A DNA stretch of 64,000 bases, taken from the NCBI GenBank assembly GCA_964364455.1, contig CAYIMR010000001.1, positions 2,403 to 66,402 of the forward strand, written 5' to 3'. The first letter of the stretch is position 1. Every line of letters begins with the position of its first letter. Shown here one piece after another: positions 1,001 through 64,000 of this stretch. The position numbers were made by a program, and so were the translations under genes. The stretch comes from an uncultured Planctomycetales bacterium (lineage in GTDB: Bacteria > Omnitrophota > Gorgyraeia > Zapsychrales > Zapsychraceae). The notes below the pieces were generated by a model that was not told the DNA's origin, did not search any database, and saw nothing but the letters and a program-made list of their open reading frames with translations.

Positions 1001-4000
1001 TTTCACTTCCAGCCAAATAATAATTACAATTTCTGCCAACACAGGCACAAACAAAACCGTAAGCCACCCGAATACATGATATAAAGCATAACCGGCAAGT
1101 CCCACGAAAATTACCATCGCGGTGGTCAATAGCACCATAACACCGTCTACGGCCTTATTCAGTGCCTTCGCTCGCTCAAATACTTTCTTTATCGACTTAA
1201 GCTGTGCCGCGAGCCACGCCGATCCAACCACGGGGCTGGAGGCGCGTAGATGCTTCTCCACCTCATGCAGCCTGATCTCCTTAAATCGCTGCGCCAGTTC
1301 TTCAAAACTTATGTTCAGATTTCCCCGGACAAATTCATACATCTGGCCATATTGTTTGACCAGCCGGATAATGCTGACTTTCTCGTGCCCTATCCTGTAA
1401 GAAGCTTCCATGATGGCCAGCCATCGGGCGTCTTGATGTTCTTGATGTGCGTAATACAATTGCGACACCTCCGTCAAATACTGCGCCAATAATTCCTGGG
1501 ATCTCTTGCGGTAATACTCCACGATCTGCTGTTTCTCCCGATAATGATCCGGCAGTTGCAAGAGCGTCACCACTTCCTCAAAACTGTACCCGCTGTCTTT
1601 AAACACATCCATCAGCCAGCCGTTCACGCCCGTCTCGACATACTCCTTCGGGCCTCCCGTATCCGTCGCGATGTTCGGATGCCCGTTAAACGACGCCCGT
1701 TGATCCGACGTACCCGCGGCCTCCCGCGTTGACCTCGGCATGCTCACCCACACGTCGCTGGCCTGCGTCGCCAGCTTCATGGCCTCCGTGCCTGAACCTT
1801 CCACAAATATAAACTTGCCTTCCAAATCTTCCCTTTTGGCCAAGGCTTTAAATTGCCGCACCCACTCCCGGCCGACGGTATCTCTTCCGACACCGCCGAC
1901 CAATAAATTCATTTCCAATCCGTATTTTCTGCCCAACGGTGTTTCGTATTCCTTGTCCCTGTCTCCTGTAATATACTCGATTAACCCAAACAGGATCCTT
2001 TGCTCCTTATACTCCACCAACCTCCTGACCAATCCGGCCAACGGACGCTCGATATGTCTGAATGCCGTCCCTGTTGTCTTCAGCAAATATTCATTCAACT
2101 TGCCCTTGGCATGCTGGCCGATTTCATACAAGTCAATACCTCTTACCCCTTTCCCGCTTCCCTCCAGATCCATTAGTTCCCCGCTCTTCCACAACCGCGG
2201 ATCCGATCCATTGGTGATCGCCAAGGTCTTTTCTCCGGCCCCCGGCAACACGGCTAACCTCGTCACCTCCCCATGCTCCTGGGCGACCGCGTTGATGACC
2301 GCGACCCGCGGATTCTCCGCCAACCTTCTCGCCAAATCCAAGCTGCCGTCCCGGATAACATAATCCGGCGCCAGACCTTCACCAACATGCATCCTTAACC
2401 AGGAAACACTGTCATACTTCGGCAAAGCCGCCGCCTCCGGTGTGTGCGTGGTGAGGACGACTTTCGTATCCCGGTAAATACTTGCTTCTTTGCGTAGCCT
2501 GAAATAACCATTCTCAAAATACTGAATGTCGTTCTCTACGGCCTGCACCAGGAAAAACAATTGCGGTTCATTCAACCTCAGGATATCCGGCGCGACGCCC
2601 AGCTGTTTGAATAATTCCACATACGTCCTGCCCAAGAACGCCATCTGCCGTAACTTGCCGGGCTCCTCCGGATACAACGCGTAATTAATCTCCGGCTGCC
2701 TGATCATCAATACCGGTGTCCCATGCGTGAGGACCATATACAACCGTACGTTGTACATAGATCCGTTAAATTCGACATCAAACCGGAAGGCCTCTTTCTT
2801 GTGTTCGGCAACAGATAATCTGCCGACCCCGGCCGTATGATCCCAGTCGATCCCGATATAAGTGCCGCCTCCGGCATGGTCCACATAATGTTCATACAAT
2901 GGCATCAAACCCACCACCCTTTGCCCGGTCTGTCCGTACGCGCCGTAGGTTTCGCCGGCGAGGAACCCTAATCCGCCGCTGGCCAACGCCTGTTGTGCCC
3001 GCGGATCCTTGATCTCATCCAGGAACGCCTCCATCGTCGCGTCCACCGCAAACGGCCCTTGCATTAAGTAAGATCGCAGATCCTCAACGCTGCGGATAGA
3101 TCCGGAGCAGATGTCAGTCTTCCGCGCCCCGGCTTGCGTTTGTTCCCTATGACTTTCCGGACTTAAAATCGGGCTGCTGGCCCCGAGCGAAGTCGGGGGG
3201 GAGGCGGTATCCGGGGCTGCCTGCCTTTCTCTTTCGGCTAAAGCCCTGACCGCCTGCAGGAACACTTCCTCGGGATGGTTCCATCCTTCGATAACAATGC
3301 CCGGGTCGATGCGCCGGACTGTTTCCCTGGCCTTCTCCATACTATCAATGCCGGAAAGTCTGTGCAGGCTGTATAAGAAAGATATCAGCAATGACCTCTT
3401 GAACTTCAACTTAAAATACTGGAATTCATCGGGCAGGTTATCCAGCAATGATTTACCGGTGTCACCGATCGGTGCTTCAATGAAATCTTTGATCGTTCCC
3501 TCAAACTGCTTACCGATAAATTCAGAAGTAATCGAAGCTTCGAAATCTTCAAGGTTGGAAACCCTGTCGACAAATTTGCCGATAATCGCACCGGGGCCAA
3601 ACTTGACAATCTCAAACAAGTAATCCGCGGCATCTTTTTTCTTTGTCAAAACCCAGACCAATTCCATCAATCTATCGAGATCAAAAGGTAAACCATGGAT
3701 ATCTTTCCCGATTGCCGCCAGTCCGTCAATGATTTGCGTTTTGATGAGTTCCAGGACCTCTCGCCTTTCTTCATCGCTAACAGGACGCTTGTTTTTATCT
3801 GTAAATTGCGCTCTTCTTTCTTCAGGAGGCAATTTATCATTACGGGCATTCGTAAAATATCGGATAGAATCCTCCACCGCGTCATGCAAAGGCAGCCCCA
3901 GCGCGACAAGAAGATCTCTTCCGGCCCATCTATTGACATACATGGCCAACACCCCCAGGGGATGAGCGATATAAGGGGCGCCACCCTGTCTTATCTGTCC

Positions 4001-7000
4001 GGAATGATGATACTGAGCTATCTTGTAAAAAATTTCAAAAATTTCTCTATCCAAACCCGGCATCAGGCTGCCTGTTCCTGTAAAATCATCGGGGCCGAAG
4101 AAAAGATACCCGGGCAATCCCCGGAGTTTTTCCTGCACAAAACGCTCCACGGTCCCCTCTGCCAGCTTTAAGGAAACCGGCCCCGTTGCTTCATCCATGA
4201 ACGACGCGCGGGCGAAAGCCAAAGCGACATCCTGGCGTTTAATTTTATGAAGCGATTCCAGAACCAATGTAATTCTTGCTTTTCCGTTACTTGATGTTCC
4301 GCTGAAAATCTTCGCGACATTGATTTGAGGGTCGAGCCGCCCGATGGTATCCAGGAGCCAGGAGAGCTGGCCGACCTTGTCAGGAATTTCCACCATAAAT
4401 TCTTCACGGTATATTTTCGTCCACAATAATTTAGGCAGCCACCAGGTTTTTGATACACTCGTTACATCGGCATCCGGAAGGGTACGTAAGGTCTGCGCAA
4501 TAGCTAATGCACGGGCGGCATCAATACCACGGATGGTAAGGTCGACAACGACTTTAACAAATCCTTTCATATTGGCGCGCAGCTCAGCCGGGATCTCTTT
4601 ATCGACATAAACCGTGAAAAAGCGTATATTGCCGCCAAGATTTTTTACCTCGCGGCTTACGGCGCGCAGCATGCCCGGCCTGTCGTGCCGTGCCCAGATT
4701 TGAAGACTAATTTCTCCATCGTAAAATTCTTTTGTGGTCCTGACAAAGATCTTTCTTTTATCCGAAGGCAGTCTTGCCTTGATCTGTTCCGGAGTAATCT
4801 GCTTGCTGCCGGCGGCCGCGATCAGGGAATCGACGTCTTTGAGATGTTCCTTTTCGAAGGTGAGCAAAAGCGTCTCCAGCCGGGCGAAATTATCAGATTT
4901 AGCAAGCTGTTGGCTGTTCTCTAAACTCAGGGCCTGAGCTACAATCTCTTCCCCTTGAATAAGCGCCTCGCGGTGAATATCCTGAACGGACAACAGATCC
5001 AAAGCGACGGCCAGATACAGCGCGTTCCAGTCAGCCAAGTCAAGTTTTCGGGCCAGCGGATCAAGAAAATCCTGCCTGTATGTTTCTAAAGAATGTATAT
5101 AATGGATCCGCATCAGCATCTTGTTCACATTATTGGCCGCATCATCGTTAAGCTTTCTTTTTTCTTCCACGCCCATACCAGCCAATGCCCCGGCAAGTTT
5201 CTCGGACAAATGATTAACCGGCGAGGAAGAAGAAACAGGGCTGGAGGAGGACGGCCCGTTCATCGCGTATTTCGCTCTCTCCAGGTCTTCCTTGATACGC
5301 TTTAACTCCTCCGCGGAAATCCCTTCGGGGTGTTTCAATGTCAACGCGACCGTCGCGAATTTGCCCTCCACTCTCGTTTTAATACTTAAAACATTGATCC
5401 GGGTATCCCTGTCCCAAAGAGCCCGTAACATGTTGACGAGAACCCCCGTTTTGTGTGGAATACGCTCAATTGAAACAGGGACTCTATTGGAATAAATGAA
5501 TTGGGCCATTTTCCGGGTAAAAGCCGGTTCGGGGACTTTGATATCCGGGATCGTTCCCAGGGCTTCCATAATATTATTGATCTTTTCCGGAGTTACGCCT
5601 TCCACCTCCAGGACAATGTTGACTTCTTTTGTCTCATCCGAATCAAAATCGCCAAGATTCGCCCCAAATTCTGAAATAATCTTTGCGACATCCAGAAAGA
5701 TGCCCGGCCAGTCATATCTGCCCGTAACGATGAGCCGCGCGCGGCCATCGCTCACCGCCCCCTCAAGCCTCACCTTGAGGTTGCCCGCTGAAAAGCGTTC
5801 ATTGATAACTTCCGCGTCGATCTGTTTCGTGCCGACCAAGGCATAAAGATCTTCCACGCTCTTTAACCTGAATGACGGGAACGTCCCTAAAAGACGCTCA
5901 AGCATAATGCGCGTATCGGGCAGACTGAAATCAAGCCGTGTCAATCGTTTCTTGAGCATCTGCCCGCCTATTTTGATAGCGCGCTCTTTGATCTGGTCTT
6001 TCGCGATAATTCCAAGCTCTACCGCCATCAATAATTCCCGCGCGTTTTTAAGCCCCAGGTCGAGCGCCATAGGGCCAAGGAATTGATCCGTGCAACTTAT
6101 GATCCCTTCCATCACTTGCGCATGTTCACGCTTGCCAAGACCAAGCATGCCAATGATTAACCGCGCGCGGTTTGTTTTGACCTTGCTGATTATATGCCTG
6201 TCGATGCTCTTGACGGCCTTCCCGCTGACCACCCGTACCGTTAACCCGTTAGATACCGGTTCTGTCGCTGATAACCATTTCTTTTGAGTAACTTCAAAAC
6301 CTTCTTCTCGTTCCACCGCCACAAAAGCCTCTACGCCGGCATATTGGTCATTGAAAAGATCTATATAGCGATGAGCGGCGATATCGGCCGAGATTGAATT
6401 TAAAGGCAGCCGGAGAGGCACAAACTCCCCTTCATTGACGTTGACCGTTACATAAATCCATTGTTTTTCCAGTTTTTGTAACGCTTCAAAATCTTTGGCA
6501 AAATTACCGCTCAATTTTAATTCGGGGATATTCCTGAAGCGCTGCTTGGATAACGTGGGTTCCTTGGATACATTGTAGATCCAATGCGCCCCGCCCGCTT
6601 CCGTGGAGTACTGATAAAGATCAAAATTGGCGGACGTCATGATCTGTATTTCAAAGGGCCTGGTTGAATCATCCCAATAATCTATATGTACCCCTTCGTA
6701 GTGATCCCCTTTTATCCGATTCCTAGGCTTTGCTCCCATCCAATGCCTGCCCGGCATTCTGACAAATTGGTCAATAAGGCCGATAACCTCTCCCATCAAC
6801 ATTTTGTCTTCACTCAAAATGACAAGACGAAATCCGAATAAATCGTTAATGTCATCAAGCGCAACCCCTTTGCGGGTCATCTTGTTCCTTATCGAAGCGG
6901 GGCCTTTAAACCGTCCGGTCACATAGAATTTGTCTGCCGGTATACTGGATTTAAGGTAAATGATCAGGTTCCGGAGTTCCAGGGCAAGGTATTCCTCGGA

Positions 7001-10000
7001 TTGTTCCCTGTTCAAGCCTGTCCGTTTTTTCAAGGCCTCCGCCAACTGCGTATATTCCTCATAATTGGTATAGTAAAACCATTTGTCTCTTAGAAAATCA
7101 GCCATGTCCCGGCGCCCTGACCGTTCAGCCAGCGGAATATAAACTTCCAGGATTTCATAAAGGATCCGCTCGCGCCGTTCCCCGGACGCGCTGGAAAGTG
7201 CCTCTATCTTATCGGCGCAGGCCAACAACAGGACTTTGGCGTTCGCCGCTGTTGTAATAATCATTCCCATCTGGTTGCGCACGACTTCACTTCCCTTAAC
7301 CACCGCCGCGCGTTTCCACAGATCACCAAAGAATGTGTTGATATTTTTAAGTCTCGGCGGATTATATTCAAGATTGCGTAACTCTTTAAGCCCGTTGAGC
7401 AGATCCCAGAGAGCAGTACCTTGGAATTCGGCAATCCCTCGACGGCGAAGTCCTTCCATCTTCGCGGCCTCAAGCAGACTCAACCACGCCGCCGCGACGA
7501 CATCGGCGGACCCGCCAAATGCTTCGACGTGGTTTGCTCTATGTTCCGCGGATTTGTATAATTTTTCATCATATCCTTCCCGGGCAATTTTTTTGGCCTT
7601 TTGAACGATCGGTTCTTCGTTATTTTCATTGACCACCGGACTGCTGGAAGAAAGCTTATCCCCTGCCGGAGAACTCGCATCATCAAGCATCAATGTCTTG
7701 GCCAGTATTCTGAAGTATTCCTGCCGTCCCATGGTGTATTTGAACAGGGCCTCGACGCTTTCGGATGTTTTTTCCCAGCTATTATCCGACATCAGCGCGT
7801 GTGCCCTGAGCGTATCCCACTGATCGTTCTCATTTCTGGCTTTCCACGCGGCGTATAACCGGTCAAAGGCGAACATGATATAGTCCACCGTCCTGTCCAC
7901 TCTGTATTCATCGACAGGGAATCTCGCTCCGTTGAAATCAGGTTCATTGTCATTGATACGGGTGATCCGCGCGAGTTCCGGAACATAGATCGATCTTATC
8001 GTAGATTTATGTCCCTGTTTGTCCGATACCAGCCCGGGGACACCAAAGGCCAAAGCTTCCATAGGTGATATTCCGCCCGGTTCCCACATGGAGAAAGAAT
8101 TGTAGAAATCGCCGATCCCGTAAACGTGATAATAGAGAGGCTTTTGATTGGAAACAAAATCGTTGTTGTATCCAACTCTCCCGGGAAACTCATAGATCAA
8201 CGCGTTGAGTTGCCCCATGAGAAGAGGATCTCCCACCCCGGCAAAGACAAACGACACATCCGGATACCGGCCGCTATACATGACCCTGCGGACAAACGGC
8301 ACCACATACTGAATGCCTTTTTGATCCGTAATACGTGAGACCAGATTACCGACGAAATAATTTTCATTGATATATTCCGATCTGCCGCCGGAGGCCGGCC
8401 AGAATTGAGGATATTCTTCGGCCATGATTATCCTCGACTCGATCTGCTTCTTGCGCTGGATTTTGAGGAACTTCTGCAAATCCTCCGGCGTATGGACGTC
8501 GAACATGGTCATGCCGAAGCGACCGCGCTGACGCTCCCGCAACGGGATACCGTTGGTCACCGAGAATAATCTGCGCGCCTGTTTCTTTTCAATGAACACA
8601 TGACGGAAGCCTTCGGCGCCGCCTTTGTCATCGGTCTGCACATAGTCCCTCAATTGTCCGGGGCTTACCGGCACAATGATGCCGGCGTGCCGGATAAAGG
8701 CGTGCATGAAATTGATCAAATCACTCCTGTGAGGATCAATAAACCATCCGTAATCTTCCGGCGCCAATCCCAGATTGCCCAAAAGATCAACGCCATTCTG
8801 ATAGCGTCCCACCTTGAACTGATAATCCTGCCCGTTGTTATGGATCCATCCGATCGTGCGCGCTTGTGAAAAATGCGGATCTCGCTTATATAAAGACCTG
8901 TCGGAATTAAGATGGGCCATCAGCGGCGCCGTCATCCAGTCGTTCCCGATAATGATGCTCGGATGGATATTAAGCGCCTTCATCGCTTCCAAAGCTCCCA
9001 GGGAGAGGAAGGCGGCGCGCAACGACTCGTGTTCCTTGCTGGATTGTCCGTATAAAGCATCCGCGAAATATGGATTGTCCAGAAAAACATAATCCACATC
9101 TTCAAAATATTTTTCCGCTATGGATCCGGCGACATGCCCGTGCCGCCCTAAGAAGATTTGCGCGACCTTTCCGGTGTACTGGACGGTGGACTTATCAAGA
9201 TTCTGATACTGCGGTAAAACGACATATACCTTTAATCCTGACTTAGCTAATACCATCGCCAACTCTCCAACCACATTGGCCATGCCCCCGGCCTTAAAGT
9301 ACGGCACCGCCTCGGGCGAAACGAAAACCGCCGCCCCGACATCCATCCAGCGGCGGACTTTCTGGGCCGCCTCCCTTACCAATTCATCTTCCGTGCGTTT
9401 CGTCAGGCTCTCCAGCATCCTTTTCATTTTGTCCGCTTCTTTAGGATGTTTAACTGCCATATCATGCATGATCACCGTCAGATCCGTCGTATTAAGCTGG
9501 CCTCGGGTTGCCCGACTCTCGACGATACGCGCTAAATAGGAAAATCGTTCATGGAAAAAGGCATAACTGCGGTGCAGGACGGCTTTTTCAAGCCATCGAA
9601 ACGCGTTATTGACCTTGATCCTTCGCGGCCGATACTGCTCGCTGTAGCGCTTGAGCGCGTCCCGCAGCGCCCGGCCGCGGGCATTCGTCGTAAGACTTCC
9701 GACACCATCGCTTAAATCATCTTTAAGCCCACGGACCTTCCTGACCGCCAGCACGGCCGGCTGATAAGATCCCAGCGTCAATCTTATCCCTTCGGCCAGC
9801 AACTCTTTCCCCGTAAAGACTTCCTCTCTGCCGTTTTCCAGATCCGTTACCATATAGAATTGTTTTGAAGAAGACTCTATCTCCAATTGCTTTTGCAACG
9901 GCGCAAGATCGATACCGGCGAAAGCCGTCTCCCACCATTCGTTGATAACAAATATCAATTTCTCTTTTTTGTTAAACCGCGCGATGGCAAAGATACGGTC

Positions 10001-16039: not shown

Positions 16040-16287
16040 CTGGAATTCCTTATCGGACAACTTGATCTTGACGGAATTCAACGCGGCGGACGCGCGGCCG
16101 CTGAAGTAAGCCCAAGCATCAACTAGGCTCAATTGAATCTTACCGTCGAAGCCGGGCACCAGAACGATTTCGGCAATCTTGACAATCCTGAAAGGCGCGA
16201 CTATACTTGGGATGAATATGAAAGGATTCTTTACTAATCGCAGGCGTGAACTGGTCGGCAAAAGTTTTGTGACTACCGAGGAATAAA

Positions 16288-16380
16288 ATGTTTTTAGCAG
16301 GCCTATTAGCGGTAGCCGCCATAGCCGTGGTAATTGCCGTGTGGTTTGGAATCGATCAATACCGCGCCCATCACCACTAA
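16288..16380 (+). CDS. Small hydrophobic peptide 1 (30 aa): MFLAGLLAVAAIAVVIAVWFGIDQYRAHHH
   Basis: ATG 16288 is preceded by GAGGA 7 nt upstream. One predicted TM helix followed by DQYR and a His3 tail. Paralogous to the next two peptides. Confidence 0.5.
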   Translation: MFLAGLLAVAAIAVVIAVWFGIDQYRAHHH

Positions 16381-16437
16381 TCATTGCCCCTAAAGGCGCC
16401 GCCCCACCCGGTATTCTCGGTTGCCCGGAAAGGAGTG

Positions 16438-16539
16438 ATGAATAAAATGTTATTCGTACTGGTAACGTTCTTGATGATCGGCCTGGCTTTCTTGATCTGG
16501 ATTGCCATCGACCAATACCGCCTGAAACATCATCATTGA
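16438..16539 (+). CDS. Small hydrophobic peptide 2 (33 aa): MNKMLFVLVTFLMIGLAFLIWIAIDQYRLKHHH
   Basis: AAAGGAG Shine-Dalgarno 3-9 nt upstream of the ATG. Same TM helix plus IDQYR plus HHH pattern. Confidence 0.5.
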   Translation: MNKMLFVLVTFLMIGLAFLIWIAIDQYRLKHHH

Positions 16540-16843: not shown

Positions 16844-16967
16844 TCCGCGCGATCCTTCTCCGATCGAGGCCTTCTGCGGCTTAAATATAATTCCGCCTTG
16901 ACCATATCTCTCAGACATGTTAGGATTTGACGATAATTTAGAGTAATCTTTAAAAGGAACAGAAAAG

Positions 16968-17587: not shown

Positions 17588-17599
17588 TTCTTCAGCGCC

Positions 17600-53500: not shown

Positions 53501-56500
53501 CACACTGTCTAACAGACTCGTAAATATGCCCTGTCCTTCGACATTGTATTGCCTCATATCAAAGCCGCCCAAATCAAGAATATTCCTTCCTTCTTCACTT
53601 CTTAGGCCAAAAAGTATATATGGATGCTCCGGCAGGGTACTTTCTTCCGGAAGTCGTGTATAAAGTTCCTCTTCGACAGAAACAGCCTCAAGATAAATCA
53701 CTTTTTCATTTCCCCATAACTGGATGGAAACAATGACGTTATATTCCCTCCCATCCTTTGCCGTAAACCTTGCGCCTTCGAAATATTTTTGGATCATCTC
53801 TTCGGTTATTCTTGCTTTTTCTGCTGAAGTTCGTTTTCTCACGGGGCTGGAACTCTTCACCGGCGAGGAGGCCTTGTCTTCTTGATGATCTTTCTTTTCT
53901 GCCGTATCCTGCATCTTGAACAATGCGCCTTCTTGCGTCTCCTTGGAACCCCGTCTTTCTAACACGAAAAGAACTGCCTTGGATACAACAGTAAAGACAA
54001 CAAAGACGAATCCGTAATAGGCGCGCGGATACAGGGACCGCAATGCCCTGAAGGCCGCTCCCGCCACAATGACTGAAACCCCCGTCCCAAACATCCCTTC
54101 TGTAAAGAAATAGCCCCCGGCCAAAAGGCTGGTCAGGCTGAAACCCCCTCCATAAACGCGCAATAGGATCTTCAGGCCCGCAAGAGCTGAAATCACAGGC
54201 AAAGACAAAAGTCCGAGGATAATCAAGAACGCCGCCGCTGCTGCCTGAAGCCTGTTGGCAATCAGGCTCTTCCATACGCCGGCCACGCGGCCTATCCCGC
54301 GGCGAGAGGCGCCTTTCGAATCAACAGGGCTGGAGGCGTTTTCAACGATAGACAAAGGATGAGGGATAAAAGATACGGCCATCCCTCGTCCCTCATCCTT
54401 CGTCCCTCGTCCTTCGTTAATTGAGCGCGCTGGTTGAGGTTCGGTAGCGCGGAATTCGCTTGTCACTAAAAGCTTCACAGACAAGTTGCTGGATACGGCT
54501 TTCGCTGAAGCCATCGAGTTCTTCCCAGGTTTGGTTGATACCATTGCGTTGGTACGCACGGTTCTCACCGGTGAGAACAAGATAGACCTTAAGGCGGTTA
54601 TGATCTTTGTCTTTTGCTGTAACAATGACGCAATTCGACGTGGGAACGTAGACAAAATGCTTGACTTCAAGGTTTGCACAGCTTGTGTTAAGTCGGACCA
54701 TGACAGACCTCCTTTGTTTTCGTCGCTCGTCGCTCGTATTTCGTATTTCGTAACGGGACGAACAACAGAAAGGGCATGATCAGTCCCAACCAAAACACCG
54801 GGACCAACCAGACCCTTTCGATTAACCACTTGATTTAATTTATCCTGTGCCCAAATAACTAAACGAGATACGAGATACGAGATACGAGATACGGCATTAG
54901 GTAAGCGGGCAAAGTAAGCAGCAAGCAGCACGGATAATAAGGCGATCAGGATCGTATTATTATCCATATTGCCTTTTAAAGCGGAGACAGACGGAATAAT
55001 ACTGAAGAGGGCGGTTAAACCCCTGGCGGTATTCGCGTTAACTCCTTCGGACACACGACGAGAAACATCCGAACGCTCACGCGAATCTTGAAGCGGTAAT
55101 CCAATCGGACTTGCGGCTGCACTAAACCAGCTCTCCCTGGACTCGCGGCTTCCAGCTACACCTTCAGAAGCTTCACGTGCTCCAAGGACGTTTCTGTATT
55201 GATCAACAAGGCCTACATTCGTAGAACCTTGATTGTATCCAACCCTATCAGCAGCATTGCCGTTGATTCCAATAGTCCTTACATCTATAACTACGGACCA
55301 GAGAACCTCAACAGCTTCGTTCCTGGTTAAGGCCTGCCCTACTTCTAATCCAGCAGACACTCCAAGAACTCGAACGATCCTATACCCATCATTTCTGATG
55401 GACACAGACCGCGCACTGCTTTTTCCACTTATAAGAACCACATACTGAGCTAATCCAGACCCAACTGTCGCAGGGCCAGATTCAGAATTCTTCTTATCAG
55501 CCAATTCTGAAATGGCTTCAACTTCACCAGCTGTCCTATATTCACGAGATCCCTTCCTGTTAACCAGGACGAATTCGTGTCCATAGTACTTCAGCACTTG
55601 CGCTACTAACTCCGCTACTTCTGCCAACCGTCCTCTAACATATATATATATCAGAGTAGATTGGGTACTTCTGCTGCTATTCACTCCATTCGCCACTCTT
55701 ACTGCCTGAGACACACTTCGAGAATCAGCTACTCCTTCATTTTGACCATTATGGCTTAACCCATTATGATCTGATGAGTTAGAAACATACACTTCTGACT
55801 TCTCTACTGCAAACACCACTTCTACTGTATTCTTTATCCGCTCTCCTGCCTTTTGCACTGCCTGATCCACTGCGGAAGTGGACGGCAGCTTCCAAATGCC
55901 CGGACTAGGACCGCTTCTGCCAAAGTTTGTACTAGTGTCCTGAGAAACCTGCCTGATTGGGTTATGTGCCCTGGAAACTTCTTCCTTTATATCAGGAGCC
56001 TCACCAATGCTGTTTTTCTTAATCTGGGCATACCAATCATTATGACTTGGGGCCTTTTTCACCACCTGGACTATCGGAACATCCCCAACAACACGACTGG
56101 GCGGAATGCCACCGACCGCTATTGCGGGGATGGCGGTAGCAGGCCGATCATCCCGGCCAAATGGTAACGCATCTGTTCTGGTTCCCGTATCCGCCTTGGT
56201 CGTCATAGACCCACGATCAAGCTCGTAGGTTCCCTTGATATTGCCTTTCTGATCGATCTTAAAAGGTGTCTTTCGGTCACGAGCGAGGCCAAGCTGCATA
56301 ACAGGCAATGACAGGATAGGTGCGATAACTGGCGTTCCAGGACCAAAATCTGGCGGCATAATAATAATAGGTGTTGGCGGAACAGGCAGTATGGCCTTCT
56401 CTGGGGCTAAAGAAGGTGTCATGGTCTTGAGTGCCGGCTGACCGTCAGCGGCTGTTGTTGCGGATGATTCCACCGCCGCTGACTCTTTATTCTTGCCCGA

Positions 56501-59500
56501 GAAAAACTGTTTCAAATCTTCGAAGAATTGCCCCACCCCGCGCAAGAGCGCCGGCACAGCGTATAATTCCTTCATGCGTTGCGCCGTTTCCGCGGCTTTT
56601 CCGGAAACTACCGGCGAAGAGGCGCCGCCTTCAGCCTCAACCAGCGAGCTGGCTACCTTGTTTCCATCAACCTGCAATTCCCCAATTTCAGAATCGAATT
56701 CAATTATCCTGGTTGCGAGGCGGCCCTCGTTCATGTATTCCGCGTAATTCCCTCCTACCTCCTTTAGCTCATCCCTAACTACATTGACAAACTTATCAAA
56801 GCCGTAATCTTCGCTGGTTTCATTTAAAACCAACCGTACCTTTAAATTATTAAGGCCAGCCCCTGAACCTTTAAATTTATTTAACATCACGCCATTAATA
56901 AAATTCTTCGTATATTTTTGCATCTCGGCCGCAGAAGCCATCGAAAGAGGAGGGGTTAAATGCCCTAAAACCGCAACTTTATTATTGAGATCATATACAA
57001 GAACTCCCAAGCTTCCGGCTAAATTCCGTGTGGTTAATTTCCCCTTGCCTGTTTCGGCACCCCCGACAGGAACCTCAACGGGGAGAAAAGGAGTCACCTC
57101 ATTTACCGCCTGCTGAATCTTTTGATTAAATTCCCGGATCTCTTCTTTAGTGATGTTTCCTTCCTCCGCGCGTAAGCGCCGCTTGCGAATATCCTCTTCG
57201 GAGTCAAACTTGATTTGTTTTGTTCCAATGTCATCAATGACCCTTCTTACCAGCATCGCGGCGGCCACAGATGCCTTGATGCCATCTCGCAAGAAACTTT
57301 GTTTTTCACGGCCATCCAACAAACCCACATACAGTTGTTCATTCGCCTCAATGTTCTGTAAGGAATCTCTATAGCTCGCCTCAACCCGCCTGTTGGCCTG
57401 CTGGAGCATGCCTTCATAAAAATCCTTTGACCGCGTTTTCACATCCACCAAACCCAACAGATCAGATACGACATTCTCCCTTTGAGCAAACAACTCTTCG
57501 CTGCCGATGTATAAGAAAGCGAGGGCGTTCATTAACCTATCCTTATCCTTCTGCTCAATCTTACCGATATCTTTTCTCTCCTGATAATAAGTCCTATTAA
57601 TAACCTTGTAATCAACCGGCCCTAAGTCTGTTTCCCATCTGCCGTTTATAAGACCGCGCGTATCATCGGGCAGTTCCGCGACAATAACAACATCAACATC
57701 TTTCCACAGGCTGCTTCCATGGGCCGCGGCATACACAATTTCTGCCTTTTCACCTAATTCCGCGCGCACATTATTCGGGACAATTTCTTTCAACCTTCTC
57801 TTTTCAGCTTCGGTCATCGGGCTGGAGGCGCCCTTGGACTGGGCCAAAACAATTCTTCTTTGCGCCGCGCTGGTATTTTGCGCCTGACGAATCATCCATT
57901 CTCCAATGGCTTGCTCAGGGGCCGTCATCTCTTTGCCGGGTAAACTTTGGATTTCCGTCGGCGTGAAAGGTTCAGCCTCGGCCACCATGCGGTTGAGAGG
58001 GATCTTTCCCTCATTTAATAACTGATAAGGCTTAACCTCCTTATTTTTAACCTCTTCCCCTTTGGCATCAGCGCGTCCTTGACCATAGGCAATGTCCCTA
58101 TTATCAATTAACTCAGCTGGCACACCTTTTAGCGGTATGCGCACAAAACCACCTGTGACAGCCGGCAATGTTTCCGTATGACTTGTTAATTGGGAAAGGT
58201 TGAAATTCCCCTGGGACCTGATCTTCTGATATTGCTGCGAAGAAATCTTCAATATATTCGCGTCCCGGGCTTCCACTTTAATTTCATAATCATTCACCCG
58301 TTCTGCCTTAAGGCCTATTGCTGTTGCCTGGATATTTCTCCCCTTGGCATCCTTGATCACCGGAACAGGGATATCCGCGTATTCGCTATTAATCCTTTGA
58401 CTATCAAAGGCAACCTCATAAAGATCGCCGGTAACACGGTCAACGAGATGGATTTCAGGAGCCCCCGCCTGAGGAGATACCTTTGATCGGCGCGGCATTC
58501 GCACAACCACTTCCGGCTGTGCAATGGCATATTCAACAGGTGTTAAATTATCCGGATGATCAAATTCCTGCCGCATAACCCTTGGCAAATTATGTTGAAT
58601 GTATGCGCCCACATCCATTGATGTCTGCCCAATAGCCTCTTGAGCGACTAAATCAGCCACCGTTAACTGACGGTCAATGATCTCATCACCGGCCTGACGG
58701 CCATGAACATTTGAGATGGCCCCGATATTATTGCCATCCAGGCGATAAACCAGGATATCCTGGTTAGCGGCATCCCAAACAACAATGCCATATTCGTCCG
58801 AACCCGGCCCCATCCTTGAAACAATGGCCAAATTCTCCGCAGGGCGTGTACGGGCCACCATATTGATGAAGGCCTTATAGTTATCATTACCGACAAAAAT
58901 ATTCTGTTTACCGGGTATTCGAGAGCTTGTATAACTCGCCTGGCTGGCAATCATCGAATCAATAATTTTCTTTGCCCCGGGGATATCCCCAAAATCAACC
59001 GCATCATAAAACGCTTCTTCTGTCTCTCCGGGGATCTGTCCTGAATACCCTTGCGAGAGAGTATCAAACCCGAAGTCCTCTATGCCGATAACCTTTGCCT
59101 CACGGATCGCTTGTTGCATATCCGGCGTATACGTCGCAACCGCGCTCATCGGCGCCGTCTTGGATTCTTTCAATAATGGTTCTCGAATTTTTATTAACCG
59201 TTGGTTCACTGTCTTATCTGTTCCCGGAGCGTCCGGCCTTTTTAGCGCCTCCTCGACAATCGCCTGCCGCGTTTGCGGCAATTTGTTGCTGAATTCACTT
59301 AATTGGACATACTTCCCTGCCTGGAGAGCCTCGCTATAAAGATTATCGGCTATTTGCTTGGCTTCTGTTAAATTGACTTCTGCCCCACCGGTATAAACCG
59401 GTGAAATACCCGCGTAAAAATTCAAATCCCCTGCCCCAAAGGCATCCACCTTCTCTTTTAATTCCGGATGCTCTTCCGCGATCTCTGTTTTAATACGGTT

Positions 59501-62500
59501 AACAATTTTATTCCTGAAATTATCGGTCACCGCGTCTGTCCTCAAGAGAACATTGCTTAAAACATCCTCGGTGAAACTAACCCCTCTTTCCGCGCGGGCA
59601 TTTCTTTCTCTATACCCGGCTACTTGTGCCTGCCGCGGGACCATTACTTGAGGAGCGCCCTCGAAAACAACAGCATAATTAGGCCCGGCCTTATAGATAT
59701 CAAAATCAATATCTTCTTCATTTAACGGTGCCTCGCCCTCTTTAACCGTTTGATTGTAACTCTTGACCGTCTCGCGAATGGCTTCTCGAATCGCACCATT
59801 TATCTCAGGGCCGGTATACGCCAGGACCTTATCCCCTATTTCATGGCCAACCCCTAATTCTTCACCCAGGGTATTAAGCCATTTCAGATCCTGAAGTTTG
59901 ATCATTGAAATACTAACGGCCTCCTTCCCCTTCTTCACTCGCGATATTAAATCCTCCTGGAGTTTAGAATAACTCTTGACTCCACCCGTTCTCGTAAATC
60001 TTTGTTGAAGGCTCTCAAATGTTTTGACAACGCCGCTAATAGCTGACTTGTCAACCGGGGATCTGGCCTTGACCGGCGAACTGGACGCCTGAGGGTTCAA
60101 AACATCTTTGATCTTCGGCGAAATGGTGATTTTCATATCGCGGGCCGGTTCCACCGGGCTGCTGGACGACGGGCCTTGAACCAATTCGGGCGGCGCCGCC
60201 TGAATTGACTGTCCCATGACCGGCGAGCTGGAAAGTTTAATAGTGACAAGACTTCCTTCCGCCCAACCCCGGGCATTGAAAGACCCAAAGGATCCGTCGT
60301 CAAACTTCACGTGAACGACAAACGTGTTAATACCGTATCCCCTCGGCATAAATCTGAAACTATGAATCGTGCCTAACCCCTGAGCGGTGTGCTTAACTCT
60401 TGCGCCTTTCACAACACCCTTTTCTCTCAGAGAGCCCAGCAATTCCCGTGCCCCCTCTTTTTCCTCTGGAGTCAACTTCACCGGCGAGGCCGCGGATTGA
60501 GGTTCCCTGCGCCCGATCACCACTGCACCCCAATTGGGCCCTCTCGAAATGGGCACATTTGCTACAACTTTTAACCCGGATTCTTCCATTTCAGAGACAG
60601 AATCAAAATGCCTCGTCTCTCCGCGTCCACCACTATTCATCACAACATGCCCGCCCGGGCGCAGATTCGAAACAACTTTTTTGAAAAGATCCCCGCCTAA
60701 GAAAGGAGAATAACTCACATATAAAACATCATAACCGCTGGCACCGTCGAGAGAATCGCTGGTAACTTCAGGAGGCACAAATGACGCAGCGTCTTTGTTG
60801 ACATAGTAAATGATCTCACGATTTTTTATCCTGCCATCTGTCGCCGGAAGGCCGAACGTAAAGACGGCCCTGGAGGCATCGCTCAAATCCATATTCAAAT
60901 CAACGGCTCCTACCCCTCGCAGTTGTTTCTCGATGGCCGTGAAGTTATCCAGTCCGTTCGTATCTCCCATGAACTGCCGGGAGAGATCTACAAATACATA
61001 ACGCGAGGCATCTGTTGCGGCCAAAGGTCCAAGCACATCAAATCCAGCGCCGGGATAATAAACCGTGATATCCCTGCTGCCATCAGGATTGATTGCCGAA
61101 GGGCCGATCCTCCCCAGCATCTCAATCTCAAACGCCCTAACGGGCCGTGTCTCTTCGGTCAGCTCAGGCCCAAAATTCACGCCGCCTTTTAGACGTTCAA
61201 TAAAATGTTTCCTATTCCCAGGTTGCCCCACAGGGCTGCTGGAAGCGATAAGGTCACGGGCCGCGGCTGCATAATCTCTCTCTTTTGCAGGAAGCCTTAC
61301 AAGATACGCCTCATCAATGCTTGCGGCCAACTGCTTAATAAACGTTTCAGAAACATGCCCGCCCCAGGGACTGTTCTGCCTAATACTTGCCATAAGGGCA
61401 TCCGTGCCCTCAATCTTTTCAACCGTCTGAGAGGTATAATCCGGGCTGACGTCAAGCAGAACAACCTTGTCCACCGTAACAAACTCGGGCCTCTGATTCA
61501 CATCTGCTCTGATAAGCTTGCCGTTCTGCTCCCTGTCCCTGTAAGGCAATCTCCCAGCACCTTTAACATAGTTGGGGCCGGCAATAAAAGTTTCATCAAA
61601 GAAAAATCCGACAGGGATGTCATCAATTACCAGGGCATAATCGCGTGGGTTCAAGTCAAAAATTTCACGGCTCAAAGTAGATTTGCCGCTTTCCGGAACG
61701 CCCAGAATCAGCACCCCTCCATTTGTCCGATTGTCAACGAGGACATTGCCGTGTATCGAATAGACATCCGCATCTTTCAATCCAAGGTCACGCAGCTCCT
61801 GCTTTAATGCCACAGGGAGACTGACATTCTTCAAATTATCCAAGCCGGTTTTAACCTTTTTGTATATCCGGTTGGAAAGATTCAGCACATCTTTCAGGGT
61901 CACCGGCGAGGAGGCGGCAAGATAGGCCGCGGCGGCCGCGTAATCCTTCTTTTCTTCATTTTCAGGAAATTTCACAAGGTACGCTTCATCAATGCTCGCG
62001 GCCAACTGCTTAAGAAATTCCTCAGAGACATGCCCGCCCCAGGGACTGTTCCGCCTGATGATTTCTATAATAGCCTCGGGTGAATTAATTTTCTCAACTG
62101 TCTGGGAGGTGTACGCGGGGCTGACTTCAAGCAAAACAACCTTCTTAACCCTTACAAATTCAGGCATCCGATTTACGTCCGCATCATTTATGAGTTTTCC
62201 TGTCCGATCTCTGTAAGGCAACGTCCGCGCCCCTTTGACATAGTTAGGACCGGCGATGAATGTCTTCTCATCAAAGAAGAACCCAACAGGAATATCGTCA
62301 ACAACCAGGGCGTGGCGGCGGCTCAAATTCAGAATCTCATGGCTCAGTAAGGATTTTCCACTTTCCGGGGCCCCCAAAATCAGAACACCCTTGTCTGTCT
62401 GAGTGTCAACGAGAACATTGCCATGCATCGGATACACCTTCCGATGGAGTTTTTCCTCTAATGTCGTTGGGAGGCTGACATTTCTTAGATCATCTAATCC

Positions 62501-64000
62501 CTCCTTTATTTCTTTATATGTTGTATCGGCCGTATTGAGGACTTCTCGCAATTGGGATTTGAATCCGTCATCGTCTCGACGGCCTGAGGACAGCCTGCCA
62601 GCTTTTCTGAAATAATAACTATTCTCACCCAGCGGCTTGAATCCTAATCCCTTGAAGAATCCTTCCCAGGCCGCTTGCGCTCCCGATTCTTCTCCTAAAT
62701 AGACAAGATTCGTACCCAAAGAATAGTCTGTGCCAAATTCTTGAACAAATTTACGTACCAGCTCTCTGCCGTACCCATTACCGCCCGCTTGCGTCCCGAC
62801 CTCGACATGATACAAATTGAGGAACTTGTCATTGTCCGGATTAGGCTGAATGGCCACAAGGACGGCGTCGGGACGTTTGCTGTCTCCCATGTAGAGAACT
62901 TCTACTTTTGTATTTTGCTTAAAGGCTTCTAAAATATTTTGATCATTGCTGCCGACCTTTCTTTCTAACCGGCTAAAGGCTTTAAAATTATCCAGGATAT
63001 TCTTGACGTCATTTTGATCCGCGGCTCTATTCACAACAGGGCTGCTGGAGATTTCCATATTTGTAGTAACTGAACTCTCATAATACTTATCAATGAGGCT
63101 TGCCAACTGGCCCAATGTGCTGTCATTATTGTCCTCAACGACAGCGGCGGGCATGAATTCGGCAAATTCTTTCTTATAATCAACAACATCCAGCGTCTGC
63201 GCGTCCTTAGAACTAAACGCCAGCGCGCGGAGAGAATTGATGATCTTCTCACCCGCGAGATCCACAATGTTCTTTTGCTCGTCGCGTACGGCTTGAGTAT
63301 CGGCCGTCGCGGAAAGAATTTCCGCCTGCCTGGTCCATTGAGGATTGATGGCGATCCGCGCCTCGAGGCCTTCTCCCTGGATATACGCGTCGGAACTGAC
63401 AATAAGCGCGTGGCTTTCTGTGCCATCCGCCAACGGTGTGCTGACAATAATCGCTCTCTGCAAACGGGCGCGCGACACATCGACATTGCCGCTGCCGGAA
63501 ATCTTCTCCAAGATCGTATTAAATTGACCCGGGCTGACGCGCTTGACCTGCCCTTCGGCGATCGTGATCCCCTGCTTGATCCCGATGTTCAGGGCGACCG
63601 CGTAATCCCTGTCTCCTTGCGGAAGATTAAATTTGCTGTTTTCCTTCCACGCGTCCACGGGAAGCGCCCTGGCAAGGATGCGCGATCGCCAATCGGACGG
63701 GATCCGGATGTCCGGTTCGCCGACAAGAACCGCCGCGTTTTTCTCAACTTCATCAAACGTCACTTCGTTGCCCCCGGTATCGTAAAACACCTGGCGCGTG
63801 ATCGTCTTCTGGACCTTATGGATACTGCCCGCTTCGTCTTTCTGTTCTTCCACCACGGTTTCCAGGACGATCTTCCCCGTGAAGATCTTCCGGCTGTCGA
63901 CCCCTATCGACCCGATATAATCTCTGACGGCCTCTGCCGTCTGGTTATCCGGGACAGGGACAAGGGTCAGCCGGCCGGTCCTGCCGAGGGTAACCGCTTT
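17600..64000 (-). CDS. Giant multidomain fusion ORF (ORF-R). The N-terminus lies beyond window end 64000. An in-frame ATG at 54380-54382 has an open frame upstream of it. One apparent frame discontinuity was verified at about 40735-40745, and at least one more is implied. The C-terminal end near 17600-17840 is unresolved.
   Basis: Hand translation of the reverse strand gives continuous protein with the modules listed below, and many motifs were verified against the plus strand. Not in the supplied ORF track. Confidence 0.45.
17640..17830 (-). other. Module: Gly/Ala-rich hydrophobic segment (possible C-terminal membrane anchor), following SSSPVID
   Basis: GTIETLLGLGVAAVATAAIGVGAYAVAGTFVAAAGIVYVAAKQLGVL verified at 17701-17840. 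Confidence 0.35.
19140..19860 (-). other. Module: class I SAM-dependent methyltransferase
   Basis: VVADFGSGAGGLT (motif I, verified at 19686-19724) and GVDVVVSLDTLFHL. Confidence 0.55.
19900..20950 (-). other. Module: HIT-superfamily GalT-like nucleotidyltransferase
   Basis: YWNGPGRSIKHHAHFQGFLGRFPIDKREVVDL verified at 20221-20340 (His-phi-His-phi-His HIT signature). An upstream Cys pair GDGKCNLCAAY is present. Confidence 0.5.
21000..22600 (-). other. glgA: Module: glycogen synthase (GlgA, GT5)-like
   Basis: MEFGPLVKVGGQGDVMHELFKAFAKAGKDVSVVMPYF, IIHTNDHHTALA, NGIDFEVWNPATD. ...AMRYGTLPLVRKTGGLADTV verified at 21281-21340. Confidence 0.6.
23560..24570 (-). other. Module: MidA/NDUFAF7-like (DUF185) SAM-dependent methyltransferase
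   Basis: VVEMGGGDGSLMVNFMEAL and SNELLDTFPVHRVV. Preceded by RQGSSSPVE (verified at 24575-24595). Confidence 0.4.
24600..26370 (-). other. Module: UDPGP-family UDP-sugar pyrophosphorylase (UGPase/UAP-like)
   Basis: LGNLDAGLGTSLERESYVK verified at 26041-26100 (LNGGLGTSMG signature position). Confidence 0.5.
26400..27400 (-). other. Module: Pol-beta-superfamily nucleotidyltransferase
   Basis: GGYAAGSVPSGEAVEGSDIDMHIHFGEG verified at 26641-26700 (GS...DxD motif). Confidence 0.5.
27430..28420 (-). other. Module: Gfo/Idh/MocA-family NAD(P)-dependent oxidoreductase
   Basis: IALVGLGRWGGGVMLNVL (verified at 28322-28390) and HYELARQALLAGKDVLVEKPLA. Confidence 0.5.
28450..29600 (-). other. Module: radical SAM domain with a C-terminal Cys-rich (SPASM/twitch-like) extension
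   Basis: MGCNNYCVWCTRL (CxxxCxxC) verified at 29371-29400. Downstream Cys clusters: FTQCQHCKF...YPCTSVS and QCPDCTRF. Confidence 0.55.
30500..34700 (-). other. Module: polytopic integral-membrane blocks (many predicted TM helices; possible GT-C or transporter-like fold)
   Basis: Long runs of hydrophobic helices, e.g. MANFFSFAVLLTGFIGSGLALGYVSLLAGVLPLGLSYLSVVPPFAITLFLLIA and LVLVNVITFVLLQVVLFIDPAHSFPFAGAFVTSGFVLALSIV. No fold could be assigned by eye. Confidence 0.4.
39950..40900 (-). other. Module: TIM-barrel glycoside-hydrolase-like domain (clan GH-A-like). The frame breaks inside it.
   Basis: HLRDIDLMKEMGVRVIRTYYPITSKAFLDKLAENGIKVIVGFPYF (frame A, verified 40741-40920), then DNTRNRGPDMLGGGYIDYIKKHKDHPAILMWSFGNDYNDL (frame B, verified 40621-40740). 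The NE-type catalytic position reads ND. Confidence 0.45.
42200..43100 (-). other. Module: beta-barrel-like segment with alternating hydrophobic pattern (porin/OMP-like)
   Basis: ...NVTLNFSLNREHEKGYLDLW...YFTAEQAIGSNRFSLTGRYKNLNVSYSNVKGAETYGVGLNINKDVKIGVSKD...YAKYNLLSF. Based on composition and pattern only. Confidence 0.3.
48250..48650 (-). other. Module: LytM/M23-like beta-fold domain (catalytic motifs degenerate)
   Basis: GTRVRSILDGRVTAVERGPRGYEITVESTSQEGIKIKQVFGHLGAVEI...GAHYLFRLKL verified at 48181-48300. Confidence 0.4.
49350..49900 (-). other. Module: soluble lytic transglycosylase (SLT) domain
   Basis: AESRFNPKAVSPKGARGLMQIIATTW verified at 49561-49680 (ES...GLMQI signature), and ...LAGYNAGP downstream. 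Confidence 0.65.
50000..51900 (-). other. Module: long coiled-coil region
   Basis: About 600 residues of E/K/R/A/Q/L-rich heptad-like sequence (e.g. ELRSLHEEIITAVEESAAAREKKADKDEAEDRRLREIQ...). Confidence 0.4.
52200..54382 (-). other. N-terminal region after the in-frame ATG at 54380-54382. It contains clustered SSPV motifs and two blocks of TM helices.
   Basis: MAVSFIPHPLSIVENASSPVDSK..., TM helices (FLIILGLLSLPVISALAGLKILL, LSAGLLAGIMTAAVGFSWLPAVLFSIF). ASSPVKSSSPV verified at 53843-53870. Confidence 0.4.
54385..54420 (-). promoter_or_regulatory. Purine-rich GGACGAGG-type tandem repeats immediately upstream of the in-frame ATG at 54382 (Shine-Dalgarno-like)
   Basis: Minus strand reads aacgaaggacgagggacgaaggatgagggacgagggATG. 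The same repeat family occurs at 15845-15885, 16545-16580, 53295-53325 and 54721-54750. Confidence 0.3.
54417..54701 (-). CDS. Small ORF (94 aa, MVRLNTSCANLEVKHFVYVPTSNCVIVTAKDKDHNRLKVYLVLTGENRAYQRNGINQTWEELDGFSESRIQQLVCEAFSDK...). It overlaps the giant reading frame in a +1 frame.
   Basis: In the ORF track. The AAAGGAGG Shine-Dalgarno sits 6 nt upstream of the ATG (verified at 54702-54716). The sequence is globular-looking, whereas the giant frame is low-complexity over the same span. Confidence 0.4.
   Translation of the reverse strand: MVRLNTSCANLEVKHFVYVPTSNCVIVTAKDKDHNRLKVYLVLTGENRAYQRNGINQTWEELDGFSESRIQQLVCEAFSDKRIPRYRTSTSALN
54858..54890. repeat. Tandem heptamer repeat (GAGATAC)x4
   Basis: Directly visible: gagatacgagatacgagatacgagatacgg. 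It encodes (SRISYLV)-like residues in the giant frame. Confidence 0.8.
56640..57820 (-). other. Module: unassigned alpha/beta module between ASSPMT (about 57815-57835) and ASSPVV (verified 56610-56635)
   Basis: Protein-like translation (…VDVVIVAELPDDTRGLINGRWETDLGPVDYKVINRTYYQ…VEVPVGGAETGKGKLTTRNLAGSLGVLVYD…). No confident family assignment. Confidence 0.25.
60480..61220 (-). other. Module: Rossmann-fold methyltransferase-like
   Basis: ITVYYPGAGFDVLGPLAATDASRYVFVDLS...GYDVLYVSYSPF. Assignment is tentative. Confidence 0.3.
61240..61890 (-). other. Module: HprK-C-like P-loop kinase/phosphorylase domain, copy 2
   Basis: NGGVLILGVPESGKSTLSREIFDL verified at 61653-61705. Confidence 0.5.
61900..62600 (-). 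other. Module: HprK-C-like P-loop domain, copy 1 (tandem paralogue, about 80% nt identity to copy 2)
   Basis: KGVLILGAPESGKSLLSHEILNL verified at 62326-62378. The duplication is visible at DNA level when 61261-61400 is compared with 61921-62070. Confidence 0.5.
62640..63030 (-). other. Module: GNAT-type acetyltransferase-like
   Basis: HVEVGTQAGGNGYGRELVRKFVQE verified at 62761-62815. It follows MEISSSPVVN (63038-63058). Confidence 0.4.

Follow-up and report, generated by a model that had tools for sequence, protein, structure and literature searches.

A recurring Ser-Ser-Pro-hydrophobic peptide lies between the enzyme modules of a giant Omnitrophota protein

One giant multi-enzyme gene fills the window

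The window analysed here is a 64,000-nucleotide (nt) stretch of contig CAYIMR010000001.1 (assembly GCA_964364455.1), in whose translation a short peptide, Ser-Ser-Pro-Val (SSPV), recurs between protein modules. The minus-strand frame read from window base 64000 runs through 21,333 codons with no stop, as compared to 531-1,358 stops in each of the remaining five frames, such that every site of the motif falls in a single open reading frame (ORF) with both ends open. The window is thus an internal piece of one giant gene, and the separate polyproteins and the island of which a preliminary description of this DNA had spoken merge into this one ORF. Coding signal agrees, with the ORF frame top-scoring in 424 of 424 sliding windows of 150 codons and another frame slightly ahead in one 100-codon window near amino acid (aa) 15826.

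1..64000, minus strand: piece of a giant ORF of the Omnitrophota multi-enzyme type (basis: stop-free frame, coding signal, domain content, homologues)

Scanning the ORF against Pfam and NCBIfam revealed a series of unrelated and mostly complete enzymes. These include HPr-kinase-like P-loop modules (aa 525-787), a radical-SAM plus Gfo/Idh oxidoreductase segment, a UDPGP-like module, Methyltransf_28, two clear matches to GlgA (one of them full-length and above cut-off) with a GT5/GT1 module as a third, several glycosyltransferase modules and a RelA/SpoT-family module with ACT domains, while peptidoglycan-binding, SLT, M23 and GH2-like domains form a block at aa 4669-7869. Transmembrane (TM) segments were predicted by a crude Kyte-Doolittle hydropathy scan, used in place of a topology predictor, which gave 23 clustered hydrophobic 19-mers as expected of the TM anchors of a giant multi-enzyme protein. 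The TM clusters span aa 3016-3657 and aa 9194-11171, and the ~5,500 TM-free residues in between hold the cell-wall hydrolase domains. The 21,333 codons lie above the 10,000 aa or more that mark an Omnitrophota giant multi-enzyme protein in a single ORF, the tiling by distinct enzyme Pfams (PF08323, PF00534, PF04055 and methyltransferases among them) corresponds to the catalogue of such proteins, and the homologues of one private module come from metagenome-assembled genomes (MAGs) named Candidatus Omnitrophota, save two labelled Planctomycetia. In architecture the protein corresponds to the 'multi-enzyme metabolic cluster' class of giant proteins from Omnitrophota, with which it has in common an ORF of >21 kaa (thousand aa) with TM clusters, and starch-synthase (PF08323), GT1, radical-SAM and methyltransferase modules together with SLT and M23 domains.

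The motif is selected at the amino-acid level

A pattern scan of the giant-ORF translation, with the chance level taken from 500 residue shuffles, revealed 27 copies of SSPV (shuffle mean 0.24, maximum 3) and 17 of SSSPV (shuffle maximum 1), which supports the earlier suggestion that the motif exceeds what composition would give. Among 4-mers SSPV leads in over-representation by far, the next unrelated one occurring 6 times. Sites of the form SSP[VILM] total 34 (final residue V at 27, I at 5, L at 1 and M at 1), and because SP[VILM] lacking the second Ser sits at background (11 observed, 11.4 expected), the core is S-S-P-hydrophobic with the double Ser essential. The residue ahead of SSPV is S at 17 sites, A at 7, T at 2 and V at 1, and the contexts are diverse and not S/T/P-rich. 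Start-codon relics were considered as a source of Met ahead of the motif and rejected, with 4 Met in the 5 upstream positions of the 27 sites against ~3 expected.

Every one of the 30 positions in the preliminary list matches a real site within ~20 nt (26 SSPV, two SSPI at 3167 and 12299, one SSPM at 57815 and one AASPV at 60479), and five sites had been absent from it: the second tandem copy at 5216, and those at 29537, 26945, 20975 and 20948. The DNA consensus proposed along with that list fared differently, since AACCGGRCTGCTG matches exactly once and the 27 SSPV sites use 23 different 12-mers. Their Ser, Pro and Val codon usage is that of the rest of the ORF, with both Ser codon families (TCN/AGY) in background proportions. 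Conservation is therefore at the peptide level, and the motif has outlasted TCN/AGY serine switches, which speaks for selection rather than the copying of a DNA cassette. Our observations are further supported by an independent assembly in ENA (ERZ2470813), which spans 18 of the sites and is nucleotide-identical over the 12-nt motif core at 18/18. We conclude that the motif is real and that selection acts on its amino acids.

Motif sites and the segments they bound, in ORF order (window coordinates, strand, description):
63035..63046, minus: SSPV aa 319, context MEIS-SSPV-V
61901..61912, minus: SSPV aa 697, end of tandem module copy A, breakpoint of ENA variant L016
61229..61240, minus: SSPV aa 921, end of tandem module copy B
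60479: AASPV variant
60218..60229, minus: SSPV aa 1258, first in a cluster of three
60152..60163, minus: SSPV aa 1280
60071..60082, minus: SSPV aa 1307
57815..57826, minus: SSPM variant aa 2059
56609..56620, minus: SSPV aa 2461
54323..54334, minus: SSPV aa 3223, loop adjoining a TM helix
53858..53869, minus: SSPV aa 3378, tandem pair ASSPVKSSSPV
53840..53851, minus: SSPV aa 3384
53333..53344, minus: SSPV aa 3553
53264..53275, minus: SSPV aa 3576, last ahead of the motif-free zone
29549..53263, minus: motif-free zone aa 3580-11484 (motif scan, Pfam, hydropathy)
29537..29548, minus: SSPI variant aa 11485, directly ahead of the radical-SAM plus Gfo/Idh segment
27404..27415, minus: SSPV aa 12196, context MIMS-SSPV-R
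26945..26956, minus: SSPI variant aa 12349
26378..26389, minus: SSPV aa 12538
24569..24580, minus: SSPV aa 13141, between UDPGP-like and Methyltransf_28 modules
23549..23560, minus: SSPV aa 13481, behind Methyltransf_28
20975..20986, minus: SSPI variant aa 14339, 17 aa past the end of full-length GlgA
20948..20959, minus: SSPL variant aa 14348
19874..19885, minus: SSPV aa 14706, ahead of a class-I methyltransferase
19121..19132, minus: SSPV aa 14957, start of alignments to homologous modules in other Omnitrophota proteins
17837..17848, minus: SSPV aa 15385, predicted disordered tail (predicted local distance difference test, pLDDT, <40) ahead of a hydrophobic hairpin
15806..15817, minus: SSPV aa 16062
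15158..15169, minus: SSPV aa 16278
14591..14602, minus: SSPV aa 16467, opens the GlgB segment
12554..14590, minus: complete GlgB (aa 16471-17149) between two motif sites (NF003811)
12542..12553, minus: SSPV aa 17150, ~6 aa past the GlgB C-terminus; its SSSSPV is where the exact repeat of 215 nt begins
12299..12310, minus: SSPI variant aa 17231
7634..7645, minus: SSPV aa 18786, 15 aa ahead of the RelA/SpoT HD domain; the second 215-nt repeat copy starts here
5234..5245, minus: SSPV aa 19586, tandem pair SSSSPVSSSSPV
5216..5227, minus: SSPV aa 19592
3167..3178, minus: SSPI variant aa 20275
1229..1240, minus: SSPV aa 20921, ahead of a TM hairpin

The motif lies in linkers between whole enzymes and in one inferred compartment

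Evaluating the sites against domain positions revealed that none of the 34 falls inside a Pfam or NCBIfam envelope (P ~8e-7; the envelopes cover 34% of the motif-bearing sequence), which bears out the earlier view of a fixed short peptide at the borders of unrelated modules. What lies between consecutive sites is of typical single-protein length (~150-860 aa) and makes up whole enzymes, a RelA/SpoT-family module among them: the 683-aa segment aa 16471-17153 is GlgB (NF003811, 919 bits against a cut-off of 741, profile positions 4-618 of 619), and segment aa 13485-14342 holds GlgA (profile positions 3-475 of 477). The 10-14 residues flanking the motif on each side are less hydrophobic than background (0.25 vs 0.34), and an AlphaFold model places the site at aa 15385 in the low-confidence tail listed above. 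The motif is restricted to inter-module linkers, and the protein has, as a polyprotein does, a conserved short motif at the junctions of complete functional units.

SSPV is absent from aa 3580-11484 (P ~9e-7), ~8,000 residues that comprise the two TM clusters around the TM-free stretch with its PG_binding, SLT, M23 and GH2-like domains. Because TM clusters flank that cell-wall block, this motif-free zone is probably extracytoplasmic, and the motif would then occur only in those parts of a giant membrane-anchored protein that we infer to be cytoplasmic. Its absence from the membrane and cell-wall part means that it goes with ATP- and NDP-sugar-using enzyme modules, which are necessarily cytoplasmic.

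Module rearrangements break at the motif

Rearranged modules, within the ORF as well as between assemblies, have their borders at the motif. The two units of a tandem duplication (aa 484-700 vs 702-924, 65% identity) end exactly at the Val of SSPV (V700 and V924). A direct repeat of 215 nt, its two copies identical and separated by 4,908 nt (7438-7652 and 12346-12560; aa 17148-17218 = 18784-18854), begins in both copies at the first Ser codon of SSSSPV and encodes the first 71 aa of the RelA/SpoT module, the protein-upstream copy being a shortened remnant that closes at SSPI-17231. This repeat is a recent segmental event, gene conversion or assembly collapse. Downstream of aa 695 the window and the ENA contig L016 agree at 99.9% identity; upstream, L016 has a different module, and the switch lies exactly at ASSPV-697. 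Nucleotides 1-782 of L016 (vs window ~61913-62700) place another module, ~33% identical to window aa 1189-1302, ahead of the 'TLKDVLNL' module, and the junction, ...ASASSPVALPGSSPIAGFESFSSPVTPPAPLPSASSPV|TLKD..., contains four motif copies. In L016 a module has been swapped, either between strains or between paralogous loci, and four tandem SSP[VI] motifs form the join. Two structural variants thus have their breakpoint exactly at a motif, and module rearrangements break there.

L015, a second contig of the same ENA assembly, and L016 align respectively to window 15324-29032 and 54515-61917 at 99.3-99.9% identity with 21 + 7 small indels, mostly 1-nt deletions in short homopolymers and patchy in distribution, by which a gene caller has split the giant frame into 'genes' of 180-1,600 aa. 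As the frame breaks fall inside Pfam domains (e.g. UDPGP), the window frame is the intact one; the breaks have the look of misassembly or decay in the ENA contig, and a small number of in-frame indels of 3 and 9 nt seem to be real polymorphism. An assembly artefact or false giant ORF was rejected because L015 and L016 confirm the sequence at this level of identity.

A distant giant protein carries the motif at its own junctions

Orthologues were sought by word-index protein searches, an exhaustive HMMER search and scans of genomes, metagenomes and viral contigs, which yielded near-identical ENA fragments and distant homologues of one module only, among them a motif-bearing Omnitrophota MAG contig (L007). 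L007 is a stop-free ORF fragment of 4,896 codons that has one module in common with the window (44% identity), and it contains VSSP four times (0.04 expected) and SSP[VLIM] five times (0.16 expected). Its order is Peptidase_M54 (436-530), SSPL-549, low-molecular-weight phosphotyrosine phosphatase (LMW-PTP, 554-667), SSPL-709, aldose 1-epimerase (733-1023) and SGSPL-1031, with the motif at three consecutive domain junctions, such that this distant second giant protein also uses the motif at its domain junctions. The P-loop strand of the LMW-PTP begins directly past SSPL, so a cut past the hydrophobic residue would give it a near-native N-terminus. The motif is lineage-restricted, and no alternative junction k-mer was evident among the other giant proteins recovered.

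The Peptidase_M54 domain of L007 (archaemetzincin-like; nt 1307-1591, aa 436-530) lies between two SSP[VL] sites and is the only protease-like domain adjoining the motif in either giant protein. It could be a candidate reader enzyme; the window contains no M54 domain or HExxH motif.

A separate observation concerns the module at window 17837-19120 (aa 14961-15388, also delimited as aa 14958-15346), which has no Pfam or NCBIfam match and is almost exclusively found in Omnitrophota, with 20 cluster representatives in 1.84 billion proteins, often beside a CMP-kinase domain. Its conserved motifs include FG[LF]EFKGxG and HGSxxNSD...TDxGDF. Naming the module (aa 14946-15400) by AlphaFold2 and Foldseek was attempted and given up as insufficient, with a pLDDT of 63 and weak matches, all of them to protein-kinase domains.

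A processing model and its rivals

The motif, [A/S]-S-S-P-[V, less often I/L/M], is best explained as a mark that acts as a peptide and sits at junctions, in short hydrophilic linkers joining complete enzyme modules. An exact, selected and compartment-specific peptide that stands only between complete enzymes implies that something reads it, and the preliminary preference for a specific recognition or processing site over a generic linker has this appearance in its favour. Our leading proposal, which we hold tentatively and at somewhat less than even confidence, is that SSPV serves as the recognition site at which the cytoplasmic enzyme modules would be processed by proteolysis, the cut falling past the hydrophobic residue. 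A trans-acting factor would read the motif, most likely a site-specific endopeptidase that would cut the giant precursor into individual enzymes past the hydrophobic residue, with S/A-S-P-V at P4-P1, and that would be encoded outside the window, elsewhere in the gene or genome. The last position takes only V, I, L or M, as would suit an S1 pocket that is hydrophobic, and the small-small-Pro-hydrophobic shape fits a cut past Val better than one between Ser and Pro. Subtilisin- and elastase-type serine proteases classically prefer that shape at P4-P1 (Suc-AAPF/AAPV/AAPL-pNA substrates), and the nisin leader is cleaved by NisP at ASPR|I. From such general knowledge the motif resembles these substrates by pattern only, having the small P4 and P3, Pro at P2 and hydrophobic P1 of AAPV, and the window contains no S8 or S1 domain or catalytic signature. 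At some junctions the downstream module also starts right past the hydrophobic residue (aa 14958, 701 and 925, and the L007 LMW-PTP). Earlier work proposed that Omnitrophota giant proteins are processed, on the ground that some of them contain S8 and C39 peptidase domains, and called the cleavage points unknown (West-Roberts et al. 2023 bioRxiv 10.1101/2023.11.21.568195).

Several observations weigh against processing. A search of all 21,333 aa by Pfam, NCBIfam, phmmer against PDB and catalytic-motif regular expressions found as protease only the peptidoglycan-type M23, in the motif-free part. The window contains no S8, S1, HExxH or C39-like signature, no CPD or C80 domain and no GTSxA or HGT motif, and its single GNSGG lies inside GlgB, so no S8/S1 protease is apparent; because the gene runs past both window ends, the protease could lie outside. 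Cleavage is here a prediction from sequence, and the comparison, which draws on a near-identical strain and a single distant giant protein, is thin in depth. Among the other giant or multi-domain proteins sampled from Omnitrophota, most lack the motif, so giant proteins in general do not require it. About a quarter of the junctions have tandem clusters, 2-4 copies within 6-40 aa, a pattern more typical of multi-site modification or avidity motifs than of protease sites. Finally, the distance from motif to next module is variable, the two abutting at some junctions only (aa 14957, 697 and 921; L007 549); as distances vary and linker composition is symmetric around the motif, a rule that the motif always abuts the N-terminus of the next module was rejected, and a module start right past Val holds for some junctions only.

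Two further readings are much less probable than processing by a hydrophobic-pocket enzyme. The preliminary description had placed a retropepsin-like protease at 17186-17587 and had it cleave at S-S-S|P-V, a reading that could draw on the position of the motif at module boundaries and on the general knowledge that retroviral proteases accept Pro at P1'. This window interval is aa 15472-15605 of the same giant ORF, behind a hydrophobic hairpin, and it gave no retropepsin signal in Pfam, in phmmer against PDB or in a scan for D-[TS]-G-[AS]. Aa 15418-15667 had no protease match in Pfam at E<=10 (only Imm5, E=0.29), aa 15472-15605 had no PDB match, and the only D-[TS]-G-[AS] in the whole protein is DTGA at aa 8390. 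Retropepsin sites want a hydrophobic or aromatic P1 and Ser is a poor fit, yet P1 would be Ser at all 34 sites; we consider this enzyme and cut highly improbable. Scarcely credible, too, is a DNA-level repeat, compositional by-product or assembly artefact with no peptide function. One exact 215-nt repeat does begin at the motif, but the nucleotide sequence is not conserved, its consensus matching once and its codons varying freely, and the window contains no Rfam family, so that a DNA repeat or recombination site was rejected. A compositional artefact was rejected on the shuffles, which reach at most 3 SSPV, on the 8,000 aa of the same ORF that lack the motif and on SP[VILM] at background, and the independent assembly confirms 18/18 sites.

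More serious rivals leave the chain uncut. The motif may be a structural joint, a minimal protease-resistant hinge or domain insulator in one tethered multi-enzyme assembly, where Ser would give flexibility, Pro would break secondary structure and a shared joint would let modules swap in frame during evolution. Very short linkers (sites at times 3-8 aa from a domain end), the rearrangement breakpoints at the motif, the range of module GC content at third codon positions (GC3, 0.385-0.69, with steps in GC3 weakly in excess at the junctions, P = 0.035), the negative protease search of the window and published topology surveys, which view such proteins as membrane-anchored cytoplasmic enzyme arrays, are all consistent with it. 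We nevertheless consider an uncleaved joint unlikely, because generic hinges are compositionally biased and variable in sequence whereas an exact tetra- or pentapeptide has here been kept through synonymous and TCN/AGY changes, with both the double Ser and the hydrophobic last residue required; other giant proteins do without the motif, and DNA microhomology among 23 different 12-mers is too weak for a purely recombination-aiding role. Slightly less probable again is a site of post-translational modification or docking. Phosphorylation or glycosylation of the Ser residues that precede Pro, or binding of the peptide by a reader domain, would then control the cytoplasmic modules or bring them together. 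Ser-Pro is a classic kinase and glycosyltransferase context, the tandem clusters fit such a site at least as well as they fit processing, and the protein carries HPr-kinase-like P-loop and several glycosyltransferase modules as well as one module with weak structural similarity to protein kinases, with an LMW-PTP in L007. However, neither a proline-directed Ser kinase nor a matching sequon is known to be established in bacteria. The similarity of the one module to kinase folds is weak (E = 0.016, TM-score 0.22-0.33, model pLDDT 63) and that module occurs also in ~20 protein families without the motif, and a modification site need not sit solely between modules.

Proteolytic processing, extended to the whole gene, would make it a bacterial 'operon in one ORF': a precursor of >21,000 aa with 25+ complete cytoplasmic enzymes (GlgA, GlgB, RelA/SpoT, methyltransferases, a radical-SAM enzyme and others) and a dedicated endopeptidase cutting at an S-S-P-hydrophobic code, the motif doubling as an in-frame module-exchange joint between strains. 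We advance this fuller scheme as a possibility and with more reserve than the cut site itself. If true, it would be a cellular counterpart of the polyprotein systems of RNA viruses.

Comparison with known systems

As far as sequence patterns can tell, the motif would be polyprotein- or MARTX-like punctuation between modules, with its mechanism a proposal. Viral polyproteins (picornavirus 3C at Q|G, coronavirus Mpro at LQ|S/A/G) similarly have complete units in one ORF and a short near-invariant peptide between them in unrelated contexts. Unlike these, the present protein has a bacterial host and an ORF >3x longer, no cis protease was found in the window and cleavage is only proposed here, and the motif stands on one membrane side only and often in tandem. 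MARTX toxins are likewise bacterial giant modular proteins with unrelated enzyme modules and short linkers, and in them the linkers are processing sites, where an internal cysteine protease domain (CPD) cuts in cis at a minimal site, with Leu at P1, and so releases the effector modules. The window differs in having no CPD/C80 found, housekeeping-type enzymes and a defined tetra- or pentapeptide. The Ser/Thr/Pro-rich linkers of secreted glycoside hydrolases and cellulosomal proteins also contain Ser and Pro and lie between catalytic modules, but they are long, low-complexity, sequence-variable, extracytoplasmic and often O-glycosylated, whereas the motif here is exact, short and absent from the presumed extracytoplasmic part. 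A glycosylated S/T/P-rich linker was accordingly rejected, given the diverse contexts and the absence of the motif from the SLT/M23/GH2 region. In the literature library searched, full-text search found no paper that describes the motif from bacteria, or a junction peptide of any kind from giant proteins of Omnitrophota, and a recurring junction peptide is mentioned in neither West-Roberts et al. 2023 (10.1101/2023.11.21.568195) nor Nielsen & Lui 2026 (bioRxiv 10.64898/2026.06.07.730766).

Omnitrophota giant proteins reach ~147,000 aa, and the question is whether they exist as one chain or as many cut products. The motif is the first concrete, testable candidate for a place where such proteins might be cut or recognised. 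It predicts exact termini for metaproteomes, offers rational cut points for structure prediction of modules and could be bait for finding a reader enzyme, and enrichment of SSP-hydrophobic provides a simple sequence test by which giant proteins may be sorted into classes. Module shuffling between strains at motif joints also bears on how giant genes are assembled.

Other features of the giant ORF

Cysteine is extremely rare, with 22 Cys in 21,333 aa (0.1%), 9 of them in the radical-SAM/SPASM-like module at aa 11537-11835. GC content is 0.55-0.58 (GC3 0.62-0.75) in the presumed extracytoplasmic SLT/M23/GH2 part (window 38000-52000) and 0.43-0.47 in the neighbouring TM cluster and first enzyme modules (window 20000-38000). 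Such compositional blocks within one ORF suggest a mosaic origin.

Two stop-free patches, ~16150-16675 (aa ~15776-15950) and ~54400-54775 (aa ~3076-3200), have codon usage far under the ORF norm, with frame margins of -0.13 and 0.03 vs 0.53 +/- 0.13 for the ORF, and both have R/S/L/P-rich translations containing Cys, Trp and His. They may be former intergenic DNA taken into the ORF. A second recurring peptide, [MT]KDEGRG (aa 3201, 3562, 15808 and 16039), adjoins both patches. A 63-nt direct repeat of 75% identity (16592-16654 and 17621-17683), encoding LGVLAQ.G...L.R.TNAPN, has copies that flank aa 15441-15805, the stretch containing the supposed retropepsin.

The tetrapeptide RAPP, which we take to be the core of known bacterial translation-arrest peptides, occurs at aa 4004 and 6926 in the motif-free part, and at aa 1203, 3245 and 3849 of the L010 giant ORF (0.04 expected in L010).

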